A DNA stretch of 36,248 bases from a virus (Duplodnaviria > Heunggongvirae > Uroviricota > Caudoviricetes). The DNA lies in IMG/VR virus record IMGVR_UViG_2778261316_000009, one strand, 5' to 3'. This document shows, in pieces, positions 2,645 to 16,956 of the stretch. Every line of letters begins with the position of its first letter. The first letter of the stretch is position 1. A model generated the notes under the pieces. It saw only the letters and a list, made by a program, of their open reading frames with translations, was not told where the DNA came from and searched no databases. The position numbers and the translations under genes were made by a program.

Positions 2645-3217
2645 TCATAATTCTGTGCTGGTGGCAGGAATTAATTTCTGCCAGATAGCGGAAACATATT
2701 TTGCCTGATGACGAGCATCAGCCAGGGCGTTGTGCCGTTCGCCATCGAAAGGCATGTCCATTTTGGGGTCGAATCCGATGAAACGCCCAAGCGTAACGAT
2801 CGTGCGTACATCGTGGTCATTCCAGCACGCCCATGGGCAGATTTGTCCTGCTCGCTCATAAGCCCCACGTAAAATTACGTTGTCGAAGGTGGCTCCGTTA
2901 CCCCAGACTTTTAAATATTTCGTATTGTCTGCGTGCCGGTTAATGAAATGGTTCAGTTCAGAGAGTGCATCGCTGATCGACAAAGTATCATCAATACAGA
3001 TTGCAGCTCGTGCTTCAGGGCTTTGTTTCAACCACCACAGGATGGTATCGCCGCCAGGTGTGGCCCCTTGCTCCATAGCACTTTCCAGGCTGACAACCGT
3101 ATAGAATTCTTGTCCGATGTCTCCGGTTTCTGGGGTGAAGAACACCGCGCCAATGGAAACGATTGGTGCATCCTTATTTTTCCCCATCGTCTCAAGGTCG
3201 ATCATTAAGTTGTTCAT
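2645..3217 (-). CDS. DnaQ-like 3'-5' exonuclease
   Basis: MNNLMIDLETMGKN ... PIVSIGAV start and conserved acidic/His residues typical of phage DEDDh-type exonucleases; start ATG overlaps the upstream gene stop (TGATG). Confidence 0.65.
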   Translation of the reverse strand: MNNLMIDLETMGKNKDAPIVSIGAVFFTPETGDIGQEFYTVVSLESAMEQGATPGGDTILWWLKQSPEARAAICIDDTLSISDALSELNHFINRHADNTKYLKVWGNGATFDNVILRGAYERAGQICPWACWNDHDVRTIVTLGRFIGFDPKMDMPFDGERHNALADARHQAKYVSAIWQKLIPATSTEL

Positions 3218-3768
3218 CACTTCACCTCCTGCGGCGGTTCCGGTAGCGGCATCCAGTGAGTTGCTTGCTCAATACCATTACCCGGCTTAATCGTTGCATC
3301 TCCGCGCCGAAAGGTGCTTCCGGTATAGCGTGCGGAGCATATTAGCGGTTCAACCAGAGAGCTATCGAAATTCACCGAAATAAGCACGTTCTGGCCCTTT
3401 TCAGGCATTCGATCACTACAGCTTATCCAACCATCCGGAATCACCGGAGAGTTGCCAGCCTGAAGTATGGCGGCATCGTATGGCTCTTCATCGAGATCAA
3501 TTGGCGAGTCGCATTTCGGGCAATAACCATCACAGTCACCTACTGCGGAAACTTCAATAACCTCTCTGCATGACCAGCACTGAACGGTAGGAACATAAAG
3601 CTCCGCATTAAACGCAGCAATAGCCTTATCAATCACCTTGACAGCATCAGCCATTGCGTAGCCGAGATTACCGCCGTCGCTTTGTGCTGCTGCTTTGCTG
3701 AGTACTTCGCGTATCTGGTGCAGGCGATCTATTGATACAGGACCGTGCGCCGGGTGGTTAGTTGTCAT
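3217..3768 (-). CDS. DUF551 domain phage protein
   Basis: C-terminal DRMPEKGQNVL ... THWMPLPEPP pattern typical of DUF551; ATGA overlap with the upstream gene. Confidence 0.6.
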   Translation of the reverse strand: MTTNHPAHGPVSIDRLHQIREVLSKAAAQSDGGNLGYAMADAVKVIDKAIAAFNAELYVPTVQCWSCREVIEVSAVGDCDGYCPKCDSPIDLDEEPYDAAILQAGNSPVIPDGWISCSDRMPEKGQNVLISVNFDSSLVEPLICSARYTGSTFRRGDATIKPGNGIEQATHWMPLPEPPQEVK

Positions 3769-5825: not shown

Positions 5826-6166
5826 AAAAGGAAGCCCTCACCGTCCGGCGATTATTGAGTCAATTACATTTCCATAAATGCCCCCGTAGGGGCGGTTAGT
5901 TTCTCCACAAAACAGAGAAGAACACCTGCGGTGGCAGCCGCCCGGATGGATTGGGTTATGAGCCCGTCGTCCGGTGATGCTCTTCTCTGTTTTGTAAAAA
6001 GGACGGTACCAGCCGGAAGCAAGGGTACAAGCTGGTACCGCCAAGACTACACACAGCATAAAGTTGTGGTGCCGGGTGCCTCCCGGTGCCTGGCGAAGGT
6101 TGCACACCAGGCGGGTGGGTATCCACAGAAGGTCGACTATCAGCCTCAACCTTAACCCGCGTGCGC
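5826..6166. other. GC-rich, highly structured non-coding element (candidate ncRNA or miniature palindromic insertion)
   Basis: no credible ORF (overlapping Arg/Pro/Gly-rich frames on both strands); 15-bp perfect inverted repeat 5907-5921 / 5981-5995 plus at least four further hairpins (5880-5893, 6005-6039, 6072-6086, 6088-6112). Confidence 0.35.
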
Positions 6167-6172
6167 TGAGCC

Positions 6173-6262
6173 GCATTCACCACAACGCTAAGGATTCTCT
6201 CTGGTTGAAAATACTTAGCTGTTATGTGCCTGTCTTTTCACCACTTCAGGCTCGGTGGTATC
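6173..6262. repeat. repeat B copy 1 (90 bp), identical to 6828-6917 as read
   Basis: direct comparison of the two stretches in the sequence. Confidence 0.8.
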
Positions 6263-6295
6263 CTTTTAAGCCCGTATACATAAAAGGAAAATCAA

Positions 6296-6541
6296 ATGAC
6301 TTTTGATGAAAAAGAACTTGATAATGCAATTAATAAAATCATCGTAACGTCGCTCTTTTCCTGTCTCAGCGACACTCAGCAGAAACAGTTCTACGAATCG
6401 GCTTTCAACATGATCGAGCGTTGTTGTTTCTGCGATGCCGACGAGTTACCTGAAAAAATCAGGAAACAGTTGGCTGATGCTCTTCGAGTGCGACTTTCTG
6501 ACCAATTTTCTGAAATGTACTCTCCGAATTTGGACAAATAG
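6296..6541 (+). CDS. small hypothetical protein (81 aa), cassette 1 plus-strand gene
   Basis: AAAAGGAAAA RBS 6 nt before the ATG; transcribed opposite to the pL operon. Confidence 0.45.
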   Translation: MTFDEKELDNAINKIIVTSLFSCLSDTQQKQFYESAFNMIERCCFCDADELPEKIRKQLADALRVRLSDQFSEMYSPNLDK

Positions 6542-6734
6542 AAAAAGGCCATTTCCATTCAGGGTCTGATGGAAAGACTTCAGCCTGTTCCAAAGCACGG
6601 TGTAAAGAGAATACAACTCCAGCCATAATCTGATGTTTCCCATTGGTCCAGCTATCGCCGCTCTGATCTACAGGAGCGGCTATGTCGTATGACCAAACGA
6701 CTTCACCACTATTGTTTAAAATCTGGACTTTCAT
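6459..6734 (-). CDS. small hypothetical protein (91 aa), cassette 1 minus-strand gene
   Basis: start MKVQILNN lies inside repeat A; converges on and overlaps the 3' end of the 6296-6541 gene. Confidence 0.4.
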   Translation of the reverse strand: MKVQILNNSGEVVWSYDIAAPVDQSGDSWTNGKHQIMAGVVFSLHRALEQAEVFPSDPEWKWPFSICPNSESTFQKIGQKVALEEHQPTVS

Positions 6735-6827
6735 TTTGTTCTTTAACCTCCAGATACGGGCGTTTAATTGCCCCGCCGAACAGCTCTTTTCCGCAATAGC
6801 TGCAATGTCTTTCGCGCATCAGCCTGC
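6693..6827. repeat. repeat A copy 1 (about 135 bp), second copy at 7321-7455, a few mismatches
   Basis: direct comparison; A copy 1 is contiguous with B copy 2. Confidence 0.8.
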
Positions 6828-6917
6828 GCATTCACCACAACGCTAAGGATTCTCTCTGGTTGAAAATACTTAGCTGTTATGTGCCTGTCTTTTCACCACT
6901 TCAGGCTCGGTGGTATC
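6828..6917. repeat. repeat B copy 2
   Basis: identical to 6173-6262 as read. Confidence 0.8.
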
Positions 6918-6951
6918 TTGGTGTTTTCATATAGCCAAGAAGGAAATAGTT

Positions 6952-7143
6952 ATGACCAAAGAAGAAAAAATTCTTTATTTATTCCAACTATCGGTTAAGA
7001 CTCACACTGCATATCAGACTGCTGCCATGACATCAGATAAAAATTACAGTACGTCAGAAAACCCGATAGACGACATAAGCAAGCTTTACGATAAGTTCGA
7101 AGCACTACTCGATAAAAAGTTTGCTGAGGCTGGGCTTGAGTGA
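6952..7143 (+). CDS. small hypothetical protein (63 aa), cassette 2 plus-strand gene
   Basis: AAGGAAA RBS before the ATG at 6952; the longer ORF from 6910 would start at a GTG inside repeat B. Confidence 0.45.
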   Translation: MTKEEKILYLFQLSVKTHTAYQTAAMTSDKNYSTSENPIDDISKLYDKFEALLDKKFAEAGLE

Positions 7144-7311
7144 TTGTTGAATAATCGACAAAACCCAACTTAAATTTTCGTCAGTGGGCTCGATGCCATG
7201 TGCGGTGAGCTCACTTTTCAAAACTCCAAGCAATTCAGAGCTGATTTTCAATATATCTGCTTGATTTCTAACTATTCCCACTTTTTCCTCCCTTGGTCTA
7301 CGCGCGGTCAT
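7105..7311 (-). CDS. small hypothetical protein, cassette 2 minus-strand gene
   Basis: 68-aa ORF; an internal GTG with GGGAGG RBS near 7282 is an alternative start; converges on the 6952-7143 gene. Confidence 0.35.
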   Translation of the reverse strand: MTARRPREEKVGIVRNQADILKISSELLGVLKSELTAHGIEPTDENLSWVLSIIQQSLKPSLSKLFIE

Positions 7312-7320
7312 GTTTTACGC

Positions 7321-7469
7321 CCAAACGACTTCACAGTTATTGTTTAAAATCTGGACTTTCATTTTGTTCTTTAACCTCCAGATACGGGCGTTTAATGGCC
7401 CCGCCGAACAGCTCTTTTCCGCAATAGCTGCAATGTCTTTCGCGCATCAGCCTGCGCATTCACCACAAC
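7321..7469. repeat. repeat A copy 2; carries a 15-codon truncated MKVQILNNNCEVVWA-stop remnant on the minus strand
   Basis: direct comparison with 6693-6840. Confidence 0.8.
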
Positions 7470-7471
7470 TC

Positions 7472-7509
7472 TAAAAACAAATGTAGGATATCCAACATGT
7501 GAGTGTCAA
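7472..7509 (-). promoter_or_regulatory. candidate pL promoter with embedded operator
   Basis: minus-strand TTGACA (7509-7504), 18-bp spacer, TACATT (7485-7480); 18-bp palindromic operators at 7481-7498 and 7516-7533. Confidence 0.55.
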
Positions 7510-7550
7510 GAGTTTATGTTGGTTATCCTACATAAAAAGATAGGCTCATA

Positions 7551-7576
7551 AAAAAACCGGGGATACCCCGGTTTTG
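7551..7576. terminator. bidirectional rho-independent terminator downstream of the repressor gene
   Basis: A6-CCGGGG-ATA-CCCCGG-T4. Confidence 0.65.
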
Positions 7577-7595
7577 CGATAGTGAGGAAGATGTG

Positions 7596-8249
7596 TCAAA
7601 AATCCATTATTACTTGTTTGACAAGACCAACTATTCTGCAGTTCTCACCGCATTCAATAGTTTTATAGTTAGGATTTAGTGGGACGAGATACCTGTTCGG
7701 CCAGTCCTCAACAAATTTTTTGAGTGTCGCTTCTTGCCCACCATTGATATGGGCAACAACGATTTTTCCGTTAATACACTCTGTATCAATAATATCTGGC
7801 TCTACGATAACGATAGAACCTTCTGGTATCGATGGTGAGCCGAGGGGATTGGTCATTGAATCACCACGGACCCGTAGTGCAAATGCCATTTCTGATACAA
7901 GGGCGGTAGTATAAACCCACTCTTCAGCATCTTCTTTCCTGACACCAGGCTCCGTCATTGTCCATGAACCCGCCTGAACCCACGAGATGAGGGGGACTTT
8001 TTTAACTGCGAATATTTCAGGTTTTAGATTTATCTTTGGTTCAGGCGAGCCTTTTCCGCTAACAAGCCACAGAGGATCGCATTTAAGTGCGTTGGCTAGG
8101 GCTTGAAGGTTGGCTCCATTTGGTTGGTAGTCGTCCTTTTCCCATCCAGTAACCGTGACACGGTTCACACCAGTCAAATCAGCCAGTGCTTGTTGTGTCA
8201 GGTTCAGTTCTTTTCGCCTTTGGCGAATACGATCACTCATGTTCATCAT
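7596..8249 (-). CDS. cI-like prophage repressor (HTH plus S24 LexA-type peptidase domain)
   Basis: N-terminal HTH LTQQALADLTGVNRVTVTGWE; C-terminal VRGDSM autocleavage-domain motif; flanked by operator palindromes. Confidence 0.85.
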   Translation of the reverse strand: MMNMSDRIRQRRKELNLTQQALADLTGVNRVTVTGWEKDDYQPNGANLQALANALKCDPLWLVSGKGSPEPKINLKPEIFAVKKVPLISWVQAGSWTMTEPGVRKEDAEEWVYTTALVSEMAFALRVRGDSMTNPLGSPSIPEGSIVIVEPDIIDTECINGKIVVAHINGGQEATLKKFVEDWPNRYLVPLNPNYKTIECGENCRIVGLVKQVIMDF

Positions 8250-8313
8250 GTAGGCAATCCTACCACATGCCCATGTAGGATTCTTGACATTGGTATGTTG
8301 GATATCCTACATT
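8248..8313 (+). promoter_or_regulatory. OR region: operators plus candidate pR, with a pRM-like arrangement abutting the repressor start
   Basis: sites ATGTAGGATTCTTGACAT (8273-8290) and ATGTTGGATATCCTACAT (8295-8312), degenerate site 8248-8268; TTGACA 8284-8289, 18-bp spacer, TACATT 8308-8313. Confidence 0.55.
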
Positions 8314-8344
8314 TCTGCTTAACGTAATTTAACGGGAGACAGAA

Positions 8345-8542
8345 ATGCGGAAATCCGACGTGATTAATTATTTCGGCGGAGTTTGTAAAACCGCCGAAGC
8401 CCTAGGTATTAAGCATCCGTCTGTTTCAGAGTGGCCTGAGATTATTCCTGAAGGCCGAGCGTACCAGTTAGAAAAAATTACTAACGGGAAACTGAAAGTT
8501 GACGTGTCTTTATATCAAAAGACTAACAGTGCTGCGGCATAA
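8345..8542 (+). CDS. Cro-like DNA-binding regulator
   Basis: 65-aa protein divergent from the repressor, GGGAGA RBS, downstream of pR. Confidence 0.7.
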   Translation: MRKSDVINYFGGVCKTAEALGIKHPSVSEWPEIIPEGRAYQLEKITNGKLKVDVSLYQKTNSAAA

Positions 8543-8569
8543 AAACACCACAGAAATGAGGAATTAACC

Positions 8570-9154
8570 GTGGGTAAAGAACCTGAATGGAAAGTTGATA
8601 AACAACCAGCATGGCTGGTGGCAGCAATACGAAGAACGATTGCTGATTTACCTCATGGCTATGAGGAAGCAGCAGAAATTCTTGGTTTGTATAAATCTGA
8701 TGATATCACCCCAGCAAAAGATCAATTGCATAACAGACTGCGTAGCGGTGGGGATCAAATTTTTCCACTTGAGTGGGCCATGGTTTTACAGGATGCCAGT
8801 GGTACCAGGCATGTAACAGATGCAATAGCCCGTCGTAGTAATGGGGTGTTTGTGCCGCTGGTGGTCATTGATGACATTGACAATGGTGACATTAATCAGC
8901 GGCTGATGGAGTCAATAGAATGGATTGGCAAGCATTCCCAGTACTTACGCAAGGCAACTGCTGATGGAGTTATTGACCAAGCTGAGCGTGAGCAAATCGA
9001 AGAGAACAGCTACCAAGTAATGGCGAAGTGGCAGGAGCATTTAACACTGTTATTTCGTGTTTTTTGTGCGCCGGAAAAGAGTAACGCCCGCGAGTGTGCA
9101 GCTCCGGGCGTCGTGGCGTCGATTGCTTCTGGTTGTGGAGAAACTAACGCATGA
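8570..9154 (+). CDS. phage regulatory protein, CII-like / YmfL-like
   Basis: 194-aa ORF, GTG start with GAGGAA RBS; position after cro and size match the e14 ymfL slot; assignment from recall. Confidence 0.45.
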
Positions 9155-9489
9155 ACAGTTTAACAACACACTACCGTCGCTCGCAACTGATTGCGCTTCC
9201 TGTACCGGGTGGAAAAGCGAAGGTGGAGTATTGCTATGCAGTGAATGTACCAGGTGACAGGGAAATTGTAACCCACAGCTTTGCAGAGTGGGCTGTGGGG
9301 GATTTCAACCGGCAGAAGGAGACAGTCCTTTGCGACAAGTTAACCGCTGGTTCAAAGATCACTACGGAGTGCCCGTCAGAGTCATTCGTTGGGAACCGGA
9401 AACACAACGGGTTATCTACCTCCGCGAAGGCTATGAGCATGAGTGCTTCAGTCCGCTCGAACAGTTTCGTCGTAAATTCAGGGAAATAG
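9151..9489 (+). CDS. hypothetical protein (YmfM-like slot); possible frame change into the overlapping 9288-9509 ORF
   Basis: ATGA overlap with the upstream stop; the C-terminal half is Ser-rich and low-complexity, whereas the alternative frame ends in a stop overlapping the next start. Confidence 0.4.
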
Positions 9490-9498
9490 AGGTCGGTC

Positions 9499-10440
9499 AT
9501 GAGCACTAAATTAACCGGCTATGTATGGGATGGTTGCGCAGCGTCAGGCATGAAATTATCCAGCGTGGCAATTATGGCCCGCCTGGCTGATTTCAGTAAT
9601 GACGAAGGTGTGTGCTGGCCATCAATTGAAACCATTGCCCGCCAGATTGGCGCGGGGATGAGTACCGTCAGAACGGCTATCGCACGGCTGGAAGCAGAAG
9701 GCTGGTTAACGCGTAAGGCGCGTCGCCAGGGTAACCGCAATGCGTCGAATGTTTATCAGCTTAACGTTGCGAAGCTTCAGGCAGCGGCATTTTCTCAACT
9801 GTCAGATTCTGACCCGTCAAAATCTGACGCATCAAAATCTGACCCGTCAAAATTTGATGCGTCGAAATCTGGCAAAAAAGCGGGTTTTCACCCGTCAGAA
9901 TCTGGCGGGGATCCGTCAGTAAAATCAAAACATGATCCGTCAGATAAAAAACCTTCTCGTCCGGACGCTTCGCAACCGGACACGCAGACGGCTGAACAGG
10001 ATTTTTTAACTCGCCATCCTGATGCGGTTGTATTCAGCCCTAAAAAACGCCAGTGGGGGACGCAGGATGATTTGACCTGCGCACAGTGGCTCTGGAAAAA
10101 AATCATCGCCCTGTACGAGCAGGCTGCCGAATGTGACGGCGAGGTGGTTCGTCCCAAAGAACCGAACTGGACAGCCTGGGCAAACGAAATTCGCCTGATG
10201 TGTGTGCAGGATGGTCGTACTCACAAACAAATCTGCGAGATGTACAGCCGCGTCAGCCGCGATCCGTTCTGGTGCCGTAACGTGCTCAGCCCGTCGAAGC
10301 TGCGGGAAAAATGGGATGAGCTTTCCCTGCGCTTATCGCCGTCCGTCAGCACATACACAGAAAAACGTGAAGATCCGTACTTCAAATCCAGTTACGACAA
10401 CGTGGACTACAGCCAGATCCCGGCAGGATTCAGGGGGTGA
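9499..10440 (+). CDS. phage replication initiation protein (O-like) with an internal iteron-bearing linker
   Basis: N-terminal HTH block (SSVAIMARLADFSNDEGVCWPSIETIARQIGAGMSTVRTAIARLEAEGWL) typical of phage replication proteins; central SDPSK/SDASK repeat; Trp-rich C-terminal domain. Confidence 0.6.
   Translation: MSTKLTGYVWDGCAASGMKLSSVAIMARLADFSNDEGVCWPSIETIARQIGAGMSTVRTAIARLEAEGWLTRKARRQGNRNASNVYQLNVAKLQAAAFSQLSDSDPSKSDASKSDPSKFDASKSGKKAGFHPSESGGDPSVKSKHDPSDKKPSRPDASQPDTQTAEQDFLTRHPDAVVFSPKKRQWGTQDDLTCAQWLWKKIIALYEQAAECDGEVVRPKEPNWTAWANEIRLMCVQDGRTHKQICEMYSRVSRDPFWCRNVLSPSKLREKWDELSLRLSPSVSTYTEKREDPYFKSSYDNVDYSQIPAGFRG
9800..9950 (+). repeat. iteron array (candidate origin of replication) inside the replication gene
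   Basis: four tandem 15-bp units TCTGAC(C/G)C(G/A)TCAAAA followed by degenerate CCGTCAGA copies and an A-rich stretch. Confidence 0.5.
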
Positions 10441-16620: not shown

Positions 16621-16956
16621 ATGCCTCATAACCCAAATACCTGGCCGGACTGGCTGGAGTTGTTTCAGAGCTGGTGGCGTGGAGACACACCGCTGGGTGC
16701 AGTGATTATGTCGATCGTTATGGCTGGTTTGCGCATCGCCTATTTTGGCGGTGGTGGTGGCTGGAAGCGAAAAACGCTCGAGATTTTGCTCTGTGGCGCT
16801 CTGACGCTGACCTTTGCATCCGCTCTTGAATATGTCGGATGGCCTAAATCGCTTTCTGTTGCCATTGGTGGTGGCGTGGGGCTGATCGGTGTCGATGCTA
16901 TTCGTGGGGCTGCAATGCGAGTAATCGGTAACAAATTTGGTAGCTCGAAGGAGTAA
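16621..16956 (+). CDS. holin (lambda S-like)
   Basis: hydrophobic helices and basic C-terminus; immediately upstream of the endolysin; start chosen downstream of the terminator. Confidence 0.6.
   Translation: MPHNPNTWPDWLELFQSWWRGDTPLGAVIMSIVMAGLRIAYFGGGGGWKRKTLEILLCGALTLTFASALEYVGWPKSLSVAIGGGVGLIGVDAIRGAAMRVIGNKFGSSKE

Follow-up and report, generated by a model that had tools for sequence, protein, structure and literature searches.

Which immunity specificity does a prophage possess whose repressor gene is flanked on both sides by 18-bp palindromes, and how is the corresponding switch built? This question is raised by the cI locus of the IMG/VR virus record IMGVR_UViG_2778261316_000009 (Caudoviricetes), a stretch of 36,248 nucleotides which was analyzed as a whole and is called the window from here on. 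The window is a lambdoid E. coli prophage. A first reading of its sequence, termed the original prediction below, had proposed an immunity switch at positions 7472–8313 with palindromic operators flanking cI. All structural elements of such a switch are present and conserved in relatives, the protein families fit, and operators and recognition helix covary. On this evidence the locus is very probably an immC-type lysis/lysogeny switch which follows the P22 plan with an operator specificity of its own.

Operator Sites around the cI Gene

The window was scanned with the symmetric operator consensus ATGTAGGATATCCTACAT, and 100 dinucleotide-preserving shuffles served as chance control. Only three sites were found at three or fewer mismatches, and all of them have at most two. 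The shuffles yielded no site at this threshold, which corresponds to a chance expectation of 0. Two of the sites belong to the left operator (OL) downstream of cI, namely OL1 (7481–7498, ATGTAGGATATCCAACAT) and OL2 (7516–7533, ATGTTGGTTATCCTACAT). The third is OR1 (8295–8312, ATGTTGGATATCCTACAT) of the right operator (OR). Reverse-complemented, OR1 is identical to OL1, and both have the same orientation relative to their own promoters. OL1 fills the spacer of the leftward promoter pL together with the first 5 nt of its −10 element, OL2 lies just upstream of the pL −35 element, and OR1 is located within the spacer and −10 element of the rightward promoter pR. The centers of OL1 and OL2 are separated by 35 bp, those of OL1 and OR1 by 814 bp.

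Two weaker sites complete the right operator. The cI-proximal OR3 (8248–8265, ATGTAGGCAATCCTACCA; read on the minus strand TGGTAGGATTGCCTACAT) has four mismatches and contains a perfect 14-bp palindrome, GTAGGCAATCCTAC, as its core. OR2 (8273–8290, ATGTAGGATTCTTGACAT) has five mismatches. It combines a perfect half-site (9/9) on the cI-proximal side, ATGTAGGAT, with the pR −35 element TTGACA as its other half. The spacing is 25 bp between OR3 and OR2 and 22 bp between OR2 and OR1. Five of the seven sites that the window contains at five or fewer mismatches fall into the two control regions flanking cI. The central 4 bp are ATAT in OL1 and OR1, TTAT in OL2, CAAT in OR3 and ATTC in the remaining site.

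The three 18-mers of the original prediction at 7481–7498, 7516–7533 and 8295–8312 were thus recovered as the three strong sites. Its degenerate right-hand site at 8248–8268 also stands as a site; its extent of 21 bp does not, the proper 18-bp register being 8248–8265. A further right-hand site claimed at 8273–8290 is present and weak, and its support comes from position and column conservation. No third left site was detected, since neither the interval between OL2 and the cI stop codon nor the region left of OL1 contains an 18-mer with eight or fewer mismatches. In the window and in its relatives the slot where OL3 would sit is occupied by a terminator. A scan of the rest of the window for additional operator copies, which the original prediction had recommended, returned a single 18-mer within four mismatches, ATGTCGGATGGCCTAAAT at 16832–16849. 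It is located in the late region without positional support and is probably a chance match.

Covariation of Operators and Recognition Helix in Related Loci

A search with the repressor revealed a broad enterobacterial family. With an alignment of 24 members, 63 loci were retrieved from contigs representing one genome per species. Operator-like 18-mers were counted in 42 loci (41 fetched loci and the window). The count covered the 130 bp before and the 170 bp after each repressor gene, with up to two mismatches tolerated in the 14 contacted positions, which alone were scored. Twenty loci encode the recognition helix GVNRVTVTGWE (GVNRVTITGWE in one locus). They contain 62 GTAGG-type sites near cI and no site of the GTAAC type, ATGTAAC-N4-GTTACAT. 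Another 20 loci encode the helix GVSRVSVTKWE and contain 59 GTAAC-type sites at homologous positions and no GTAGG-type site. An intermediate helix, GVSRVTVTGWE, was found in two loci (L015 and L016), with no more than one GTAGG-type site close to cI. At a distance from the repressor gene, about 160 kb contained just three sites, two of which are displaced OL sites of a locus with disrupted cI (L006).

The GTAGG group comprises the window and 19 loci from Enterobacter, Pantoea, Erwinia, Rahnella, Kluyvera, Proteus, Morganella and others, with repressors about 50–90% identical (tblastn best segment). The sister group with the helix GVSRVSVTKWE includes prophages of Yersinia, Buttiauxella, Kluyvera, Edwardsiella and others, and its repressors are about 50–54% identical to the window cI. 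Both groups share an OR3 abutting the ATG, the pL architecture TTGACA-18-TACATT, the terminator after cI and two OL sites. They differ in operator positions 6-7, which are AC in the sister group and GG in the window, and in the helix substitutions N29S, T32S and G35K. The helix of Cro shifts in parallel with the operator type, from HPSVSEW or HASVSGW in the GTAGG group to HPAVC/SRW in the GTAAC group. This covariation is about as strong as evidence from sequences alone can be that CI and Cro read these sites.

As an observation on the disrupted locus, L006 (Erwinia tracheiphila, 2001–2850) carries a repressor homologue with a premature stop codon, followed by a repeated C-terminal coding segment, with terminator and OL sites beyond it. 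This prophage is probably decaying.

Conservation within the cI-cro intergenic region was determined from a MAFFT alignment of 17 GTAGG-type loci. An ungapped profile was set aside on account of a mis-anchored sequence and 1-nt indels. Mean column identity was 0.95 for OR3, 0.87 for OR2 and 0.88 for OR1, as compared with 0.56 and 0.57 for the spacers between the sites and 0.47 for the pR leader.

The Repressor, Cro and Neighboring Genes

The cI gene (7596..8249, minus strand) encodes 217 amino acids with an N-terminal helix-turn-helix domain of the P22 C2 type (PF01381 HTH_3, 1.1e-15, residues 8–62) and a C-terminal S24 self-cleaving domain (PF00717 Peptidase_S24, 3.7e-25). Among PDB structures the full-length lambda repressor 3bdn was matched at 7e-25, and the first 66 residues matched the DNA-binding domain structures of P22 C2 (2r1j, 3jxb and 1adr) at about 5e-14 (5.7e-14 for 2r1j and 3jxb). 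The protein is 44% identical to P22 C2 over 207 amino acids. Its motifs VQAGSW, GDSM and LKK align with VQAGMF, GNSM and FKK of the lambda repressor, with K192 of lambda corresponding to K177. Residues Ala93-Gly94, Ser131 and Lys177 are invariant across 24 homologues. Judged by these residues, the self-cleavage domain is intact.

The cro gene (8345..8542, plus strand) encodes 65 amino acids of the P22 Cro family (PF14549 P22_Cro, 7.6e-22; PDB 1rzs, 7e-12) and is preceded by the Shine-Dalgarno sequence GGGAGA at 8334–8339. It is divergent from cI, with 95 bp between the start codons. The gene following cro (8570–9154) encodes a CII-like/YmfL-family protein (PF06892, phrog_101). The RefSeq annotation is generic, naming a "LexA family protein" and a "Cro/CI family transcriptional regulator" only.

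Since the gene after cro is YmfL-like, YmfK of e14 was considered as the nearest K-12 relative of the repressor. This candidate was discarded because the alignment is confined to the C-terminal domain (35% identity over 146 amino acids) and the operators of e14 are of the GGTAC type.

Promoters and Terminator

Near-duplicate promoters drive the two early operons. The leftward promoter pL (7480..7509, minus strand) consists of a −35 element TTGACA (7509..7504), an 18-bp spacer and a −10 element TACATT (7485..7480). The rightward promoter pR (8284..8313, plus strand) serves cro and the rightward early operon with TTGACA at 8284–8289, an 18-bp spacer and TACATT at 8308–8313. Each matches the promoter consensus in 10 of 12 positions, and the two are the best promoter-like matches in the region 6000–9500. 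They are embedded in a 40-nt inverted repeat (I1; 7472–7511 and 8282–8321) with 83% complementarity. The original prediction had described both as TTGACA-18-TACATT with an operator inside the spacer. This was found, and the operator additionally covers the first five bases of the −10 element. Most related loci, in both operator groups, show the same arrangement downstream of cI.

The maintenance promoter PRM of cI is proposed from position. The cI start codon (8247–8249, minus strand) overlaps OR3 by 2 nt, the last two bases of OR3 being the AT of the ATG. An operator abutting the start codon, as originally predicted, is therefore correct. The proposed extended −10 element of PRM (8257..8265, minus strand) is composed of TGG and the hexamer TAGGAT (8262..8257) and occupies a position homologous to the annotated PRM of P22. 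A weak putative −35 element, AAGAAT (8285..8280), lies 17 bp upstream of the hexamer. The −10 element lies 7 nt before A8249 and 5 nt before A8251. Transcription of cI is predicted to start at A8251, giving a 2-nt leader, or at A8249, giving a leaderless messenger. Such an mRNA can soundly be inferred, because the site spacing, the location of the PRM −10 element inside OR3 and the abutment of OR3 and ATG match the annotated immC region of P22.

Further features of OR3 bear on this promoter. Its outer three bases are TGG, compared with ATG in the operator consensus, and this departure is kept in 15 of 17 loci. The TGG creates a TGn-type extended −10 element, which would strengthen a PRM without a good −35 element and at the same time weaken OR3. 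OR3 is immediately followed by the ATG in every relative, whichever its specificity group, and the GTAAC-group relatives have no Shine-Dalgarno-like sequence ahead of this operator-abutting ATG. Both observations favor the leaderless reading.

Between the cI stop codon and OL2 an intrinsic terminator was identified at 7551..7576 on the minus strand, with the stem CCGGGG, the loop UAU, the stem CCCCGG and seven subsequent U residues. The 61-nt stretch 7540–7600 containing CCGGGG-ATA-CCCCGG has a folding energy of −17 kcal/mol on the minus strand (z = −3.0). A terminator scan missed this hairpin, probably because the scan extends the stem into the adjacent A/U runs; folding showed it. Nearly all related loci have a G+C hairpin with a T-run in the equivalent slot. 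The run following the stem comprises seven U on the minus strand, which is the sense of cI, and just four on the plus strand. The hairpin is best read as a terminator of cI transcripts originating from PRM or from the establishment promoter PRE, and it would be essentially unidirectional. Of the bidirectional terminator originally proposed at this place, the strong cI-directed function is retained and the opposite direction is weakly supported. A scan of the whole window with Rfam matched no RNA family; hence, the region is not a known riboregulator.

Proposed Mechanism and Alternative Explanations

According to the model derived here, CI dimers (217 residues per subunit) would bind the 18-bp two-fold symmetric operators via the P22 C2-type helix-turn-helix. 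Within the consensus ATGTAGG-ATAT-CCTACAT the outer bases would be contacted and the 4-bp A/T center would be read indirectly. OL1 and OR1 lie within the spacer and −10 element of near-duplicate promoters, so that their occupancy would block RNA polymerase. The weak OR2, which overlaps the pR −35 element, would probably be filled cooperatively. OR3 carries the PRM −10 element (TGGTAGGAT) and overlaps the cI AUG; as a consequence the cI mRNA of the lysogen would be leaderless or possess a 2-nt leader, and repressor at high levels would turn off its own synthesis at this site. Downstream of cI, the hairpin and its U7 tract would halt PRM transcripts before pL and thereby spare the repressed left operon. 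During lytic growth the P22-type Cro would bind the same sites. Induction of the prophage would proceed by RecA-stimulated self-cleavage of CI at Ala93-Gly94.

Several observations weigh against parts of this model. The promoter scan alone was not significant, with five promoters found and 5.3 expected in shuffles, so that pL and pR rest on conservation in the relatives. The PRM −10 element lies within OR3, and its conservation is therefore inseparable from that of the operator. Furthermore, the second operator group (GTAAC) lacks the TGn extended −10 element. A search of open-access full text for four versions of the operator string returned unrelated primer matches only. To these are added an AGGA motif within OR3 and the poor consensus match of OR2, from which two alternative explanations arise.

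The first alternative concerns the start of the cI messenger. Maintenance transcription might begin further upstream, or only a cII-dependent PRE-type transcript might matter. Inside OR3, 8 nt ahead of the AUG, lies the motif AGGA (8261..8258), which is also part of the GTAGG-group half-site. Such a longer transcript could use it as a Shine-Dalgarno sequence, since motif and spacing make up a workable ribosome-binding site, and a leaderless mRNA is consequently not forced. In line with this, the proposed PRM −35 element AAGAAT is poor. The CII-like gene after cro makes an additional, longer establishment transcript in the leftward direction likely. Opposed to this are a search of the minus strand from pR to the AUG, which revealed no other TAnnnT with a plausible −35 element, and the GTAAC relatives, in which the same ATG is used without a Shine-Dalgarno-like sequence. 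In P22, which has the same layout, the 5′ end of the RM transcript is annotated 4 nt before the c2 AUG. Moreover, the two modes are compatible. In lambda the cI mRNA produced from PRM is leaderless, and PRE transcripts carry a Shine-Dalgarno sequence. We consider a leadered maintenance messenger rather unlikely and retain the leaderless or nearly leaderless one.

The second alternative assumes that the right operator has only two real sites (8295–8312 and 8248–8265). The sequence at 8273–8290 would then be the pR −35 element next to a chance half-site, and a cooperative OR1-OR2 pair would not exist. Indeed, with five mismatches OR2 is no better a match than two unrelated places in the window, among them one at 1877, so that OR2 stands only on its position and conservation; one of its halves, TTGACA, is explained by the promoter alone. 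However, the other half is perfect, and the distances of the site to OR1 and OR3 (22 and 25 bp) are close to the 23 and 25 bp of P22. The mean column identity of this cI-proximal half in the 17 loci is 0.84, compared with 0.56 in the flanking gaps, and in the GTAAC group the half-site changes to a (G/T)TTACAT-like sequence. Because of this conservation and its change with the operator type, OR2 is probably a real site. In P22, too, OR2 is the site that fits the P22 consensus least well, with six mismatches. A right operator of two sites is thus improbable, and the tripartite arrangement is preferred.

That the palindromes are not repressor operators at all, being chance repeats or sites of a host regulator or of Cro alone, is hardly credible: the link between site and repressor is drawn here from sequence comparison, yet none of the 100 shuffles gave a single such site, the sites of all 40 informative loci are found only around cI and switch exactly with the recognition helix, and the design copies that of P22, for which binding was demonstrated by crystallography and biochemistry (PMC4267663).

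Repeats and Possible Leader Elements of the Left Operon

The region left of pL contains two pairs of direct repeats. One pair (6172–6262 and 6827–6917) is 91 nt long with 100% identity at a distance of 655 bp; the other (6676–6846 and 7304–7474) is 171 nt long with 94% identity at a distance of 628 bp. The 171-nt repeat harbors the pL leader, an open reading frame of 40 amino acids with a CxxC motif (MRRLMRERHCSYCGKEL...) and the first codons of the phrog_3195 gene. No family match was obtained for the 40-residue protein. The repeats flank two cassettes of roughly 630–650 bp, each consisting of a convergent pair of small genes overlapping at their 3′ ends, with PHROG matches without known function. 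Cassette 1 contains phrog_15476 (7105–7311, minus strand) and phrog_2605 (6910–7143, plus strand), cassette 2 phrog_3195 (6459–6734, minus strand) and phrog_3311 (6296–6541, plus strand). It looks as if cassettes had been inserted or duplicated by recombination at a leader module that they share. The plus-strand genes within the leftward operon are reminiscent of P22 sieB.

A segment of 86 bp (7384–7469), comprising the start of the 40-residue reading frame and upstream bases, is 97–99% identical to DNA of otherwise unrelated phages. These are P1, the P1-like phages RCS47 and JL22 (under a gene annotated as plp), mEp460, IME207 and several Stx2a phages. Most of the 1,239 E. coli genomes matching the query probably do so through this segment, which may be a mobile mosaic-junction or leader module.

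In many related prophages and in e14 of K-12, pL is directly followed by a conserved element of about 60 nt, …CATCAACAGCGAACAGGCAGGACGCCCACGAAGTAGCCGCC..GGCGTATGAA…, which is absent from the window and matches no Rfam family. It was located about 10–70 nt downstream of pL in ten loci (L007, L008, L011, L021, L022, L026, L029, L033, L035 and L041) and, for e14, at 3140–3180 of L169. Its position suggests a nutL/put-like antitermination element or a leader RNA. In the Yersinia artesiana locus of the sister group (L021), positions 3208–3289, a few hundred bp left of pL, match the Hfq-binding small RNA isrB of Rfam with 38.4 bits at a gathering score of 35.

Distribution and Significance

The 1.3-kb immunity module is common among E. 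coli prophages. Of 5,426 complete E. coli genomes, 140 carry it at 99–100% identity. It is also present in six phage records, namely vB_EcoM-720R4, SKA5, Lys8385Vzw and three Stx2c-converting phages, the latter at 99.6–99.8%. An exact match to the operator string was obtained in 102 viral contigs, which typically contain two copies 814 bp apart. Taken together, the locus appears to represent a previously uncharacterized immunity specificity of a P22-type switch that is mechanistically ordinary and adds nothing conceptual to the lambda/P22 paradigm.

Knowledge of the operators, the promoters and the likely cI start makes it possible to predict superinfection immunity groups, and the map allows reporter or induction assays for these prophages. 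A switch with a two-site OL can also be compared with the "hair-trigger" Stx phages of the 933W type (PMC5977221). The two sister specificities form a natural test set for changes in DNA specificity among P22-type repressors and Cro proteins.

A tentative possibility is that the GTAGG and GTAAC groups represent a natural minimal specificity swap. The substitutions N29S, T32S and G35K, together with the parallel changes in Cro, would retarget operator positions 6-7 only. The outer ACAT would remain frozen because it doubles as the −10 element of pL and pR (TACATT) and as the cI start codon. If true, this promoter and start-codon duty limits which operator positions can evolve new immunities. 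Separately, and just as tentatively, the two-site OL and the duplicated pL and pR could provide the Stx2c-associated switch with an induction behavior different from that of P22.

Comparison with P22, Lambda and 933W

The RefSeq record of P22 annotates OR1-3, OL1-3, pL, pR, the lysogen c2 promoter and the 5′ nucleotide of the RM transcript. All distances were re-measured on the P22 sequence. The spacing of OR3 and OR2 is 25 bp in both phages, that of OR2 and OR1 is 23 bp in P22 and 22 bp in the window, and that of OL1 and OL2 is 35 bp in both. OL1 and OR1 are 819 bp apart in P22 and 814 bp in the window. The leftward promoters are TTGACC-17-TAAATT (P22) and TTGACA-18-TACATT (window); both contain OL1 in the spacer, with the −10 element made from the last five bases of that operator (TAAAT|T and TACAT|T, respectively). 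PRM reads AGGAAT-17-TAAGAT in P22, and the proposed PRM of the window reads AAGAAT-17-TAGGAT, with the −10 element at operator positions 4–9 of OR3 in either case. OR3 of P22 ends immediately ahead of the ATG, whereas that of the window overlaps it by 2 nt. The two phages further have in common 18-bp two-fold symmetric operators with a 4-bp center, a divergent cro of the P22 family and a C2-type repressor.

Other features differ. In the window pR is a copy of pL, with its −35 element inside OR2 and its −10 element formed from the end of OR1; in P22, by contrast, the pR −10 element precedes OR1. The window pR is located about 14 bp further from cI. P22 possesses three OL sites and the window two, and a terminator separates cI from OL in the window, unlike in P22.

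The specificity is also distinct. The P22 operator consensus is ATTTAAG-N4-CTTAAAT, from which the individual P22 sites differ by 3–6 bases. In the window operator ATGTAGG-N4-CCTACAT positions 3 and 6 are G and G instead of T and A, and the recognition helix is NRVTVTG instead of SNVAISQ. The repressor of phage 21 is of the same kind as P22 C2. The ATTTAAG-N4-CTTAAAT operators and the SNVAISQ helix that define the P22/21 immunity group were not found in the window; half-site and helix thus point to a different immunity type. A T-to-C change at operator position 3 abolishes specific binding by the P22 repressor (PMC4267663). Given this effect and the differences at positions 3 and 6 and in the helix, the window phage and P22 should be hetero-immune.

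The P22 repressor contacts positions 2–7 and 12–17 of its 18-bp sites; the center, positions 8–11, is not contacted and is preferred A/T-rich, and G/C-containing centers weaken binding (PMC4267663). If this rule applies here, OL1 and OR1 with the center ATAT would be the strongest sites, closely followed by OL2 with TTAT. OR3, with CAAT and altered outer bases, would be weaker, and OR2 would depend on a neighboring bound dimer.

The window shares with lambda the divergent cI and cro genes and a tripartite OR, as well as the predicted repression of pR and pL at the O1 and O2 sites, autoregulation of PRM at OR3 and a leaderless cI messenger. The C-terminal domain of its repressor matches that of lambda cI (3bdn), with the same Ala-Gly, Ser and Lys residues for self-cleavage. 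The operators of lambda, however, are 17 bp long, and the N-terminal domain that recognizes them is a different one and has an arm. In lambda OR3 is centered near −19 and OR2 near −42 of PRM. In P22 and in the window alike, OR3 extends over the PRM start site, which is a predicted one in the window, and over the −10 element (center about −7), and OR2 overlaps the PRM −35 element (center about −32). Lambda has three OL sites and carries rexAB between cI and pL.

Phage 933W has three OR sites and only two OL sites, OL3 being absent (PMC5977221). The window resembles it in these numbers, whereas repressor and operator sequences are unrelated; Stx2a-type repressors are about 34–36% identical to the window cI. 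The closest model for the switch is P22, rather than lambda.

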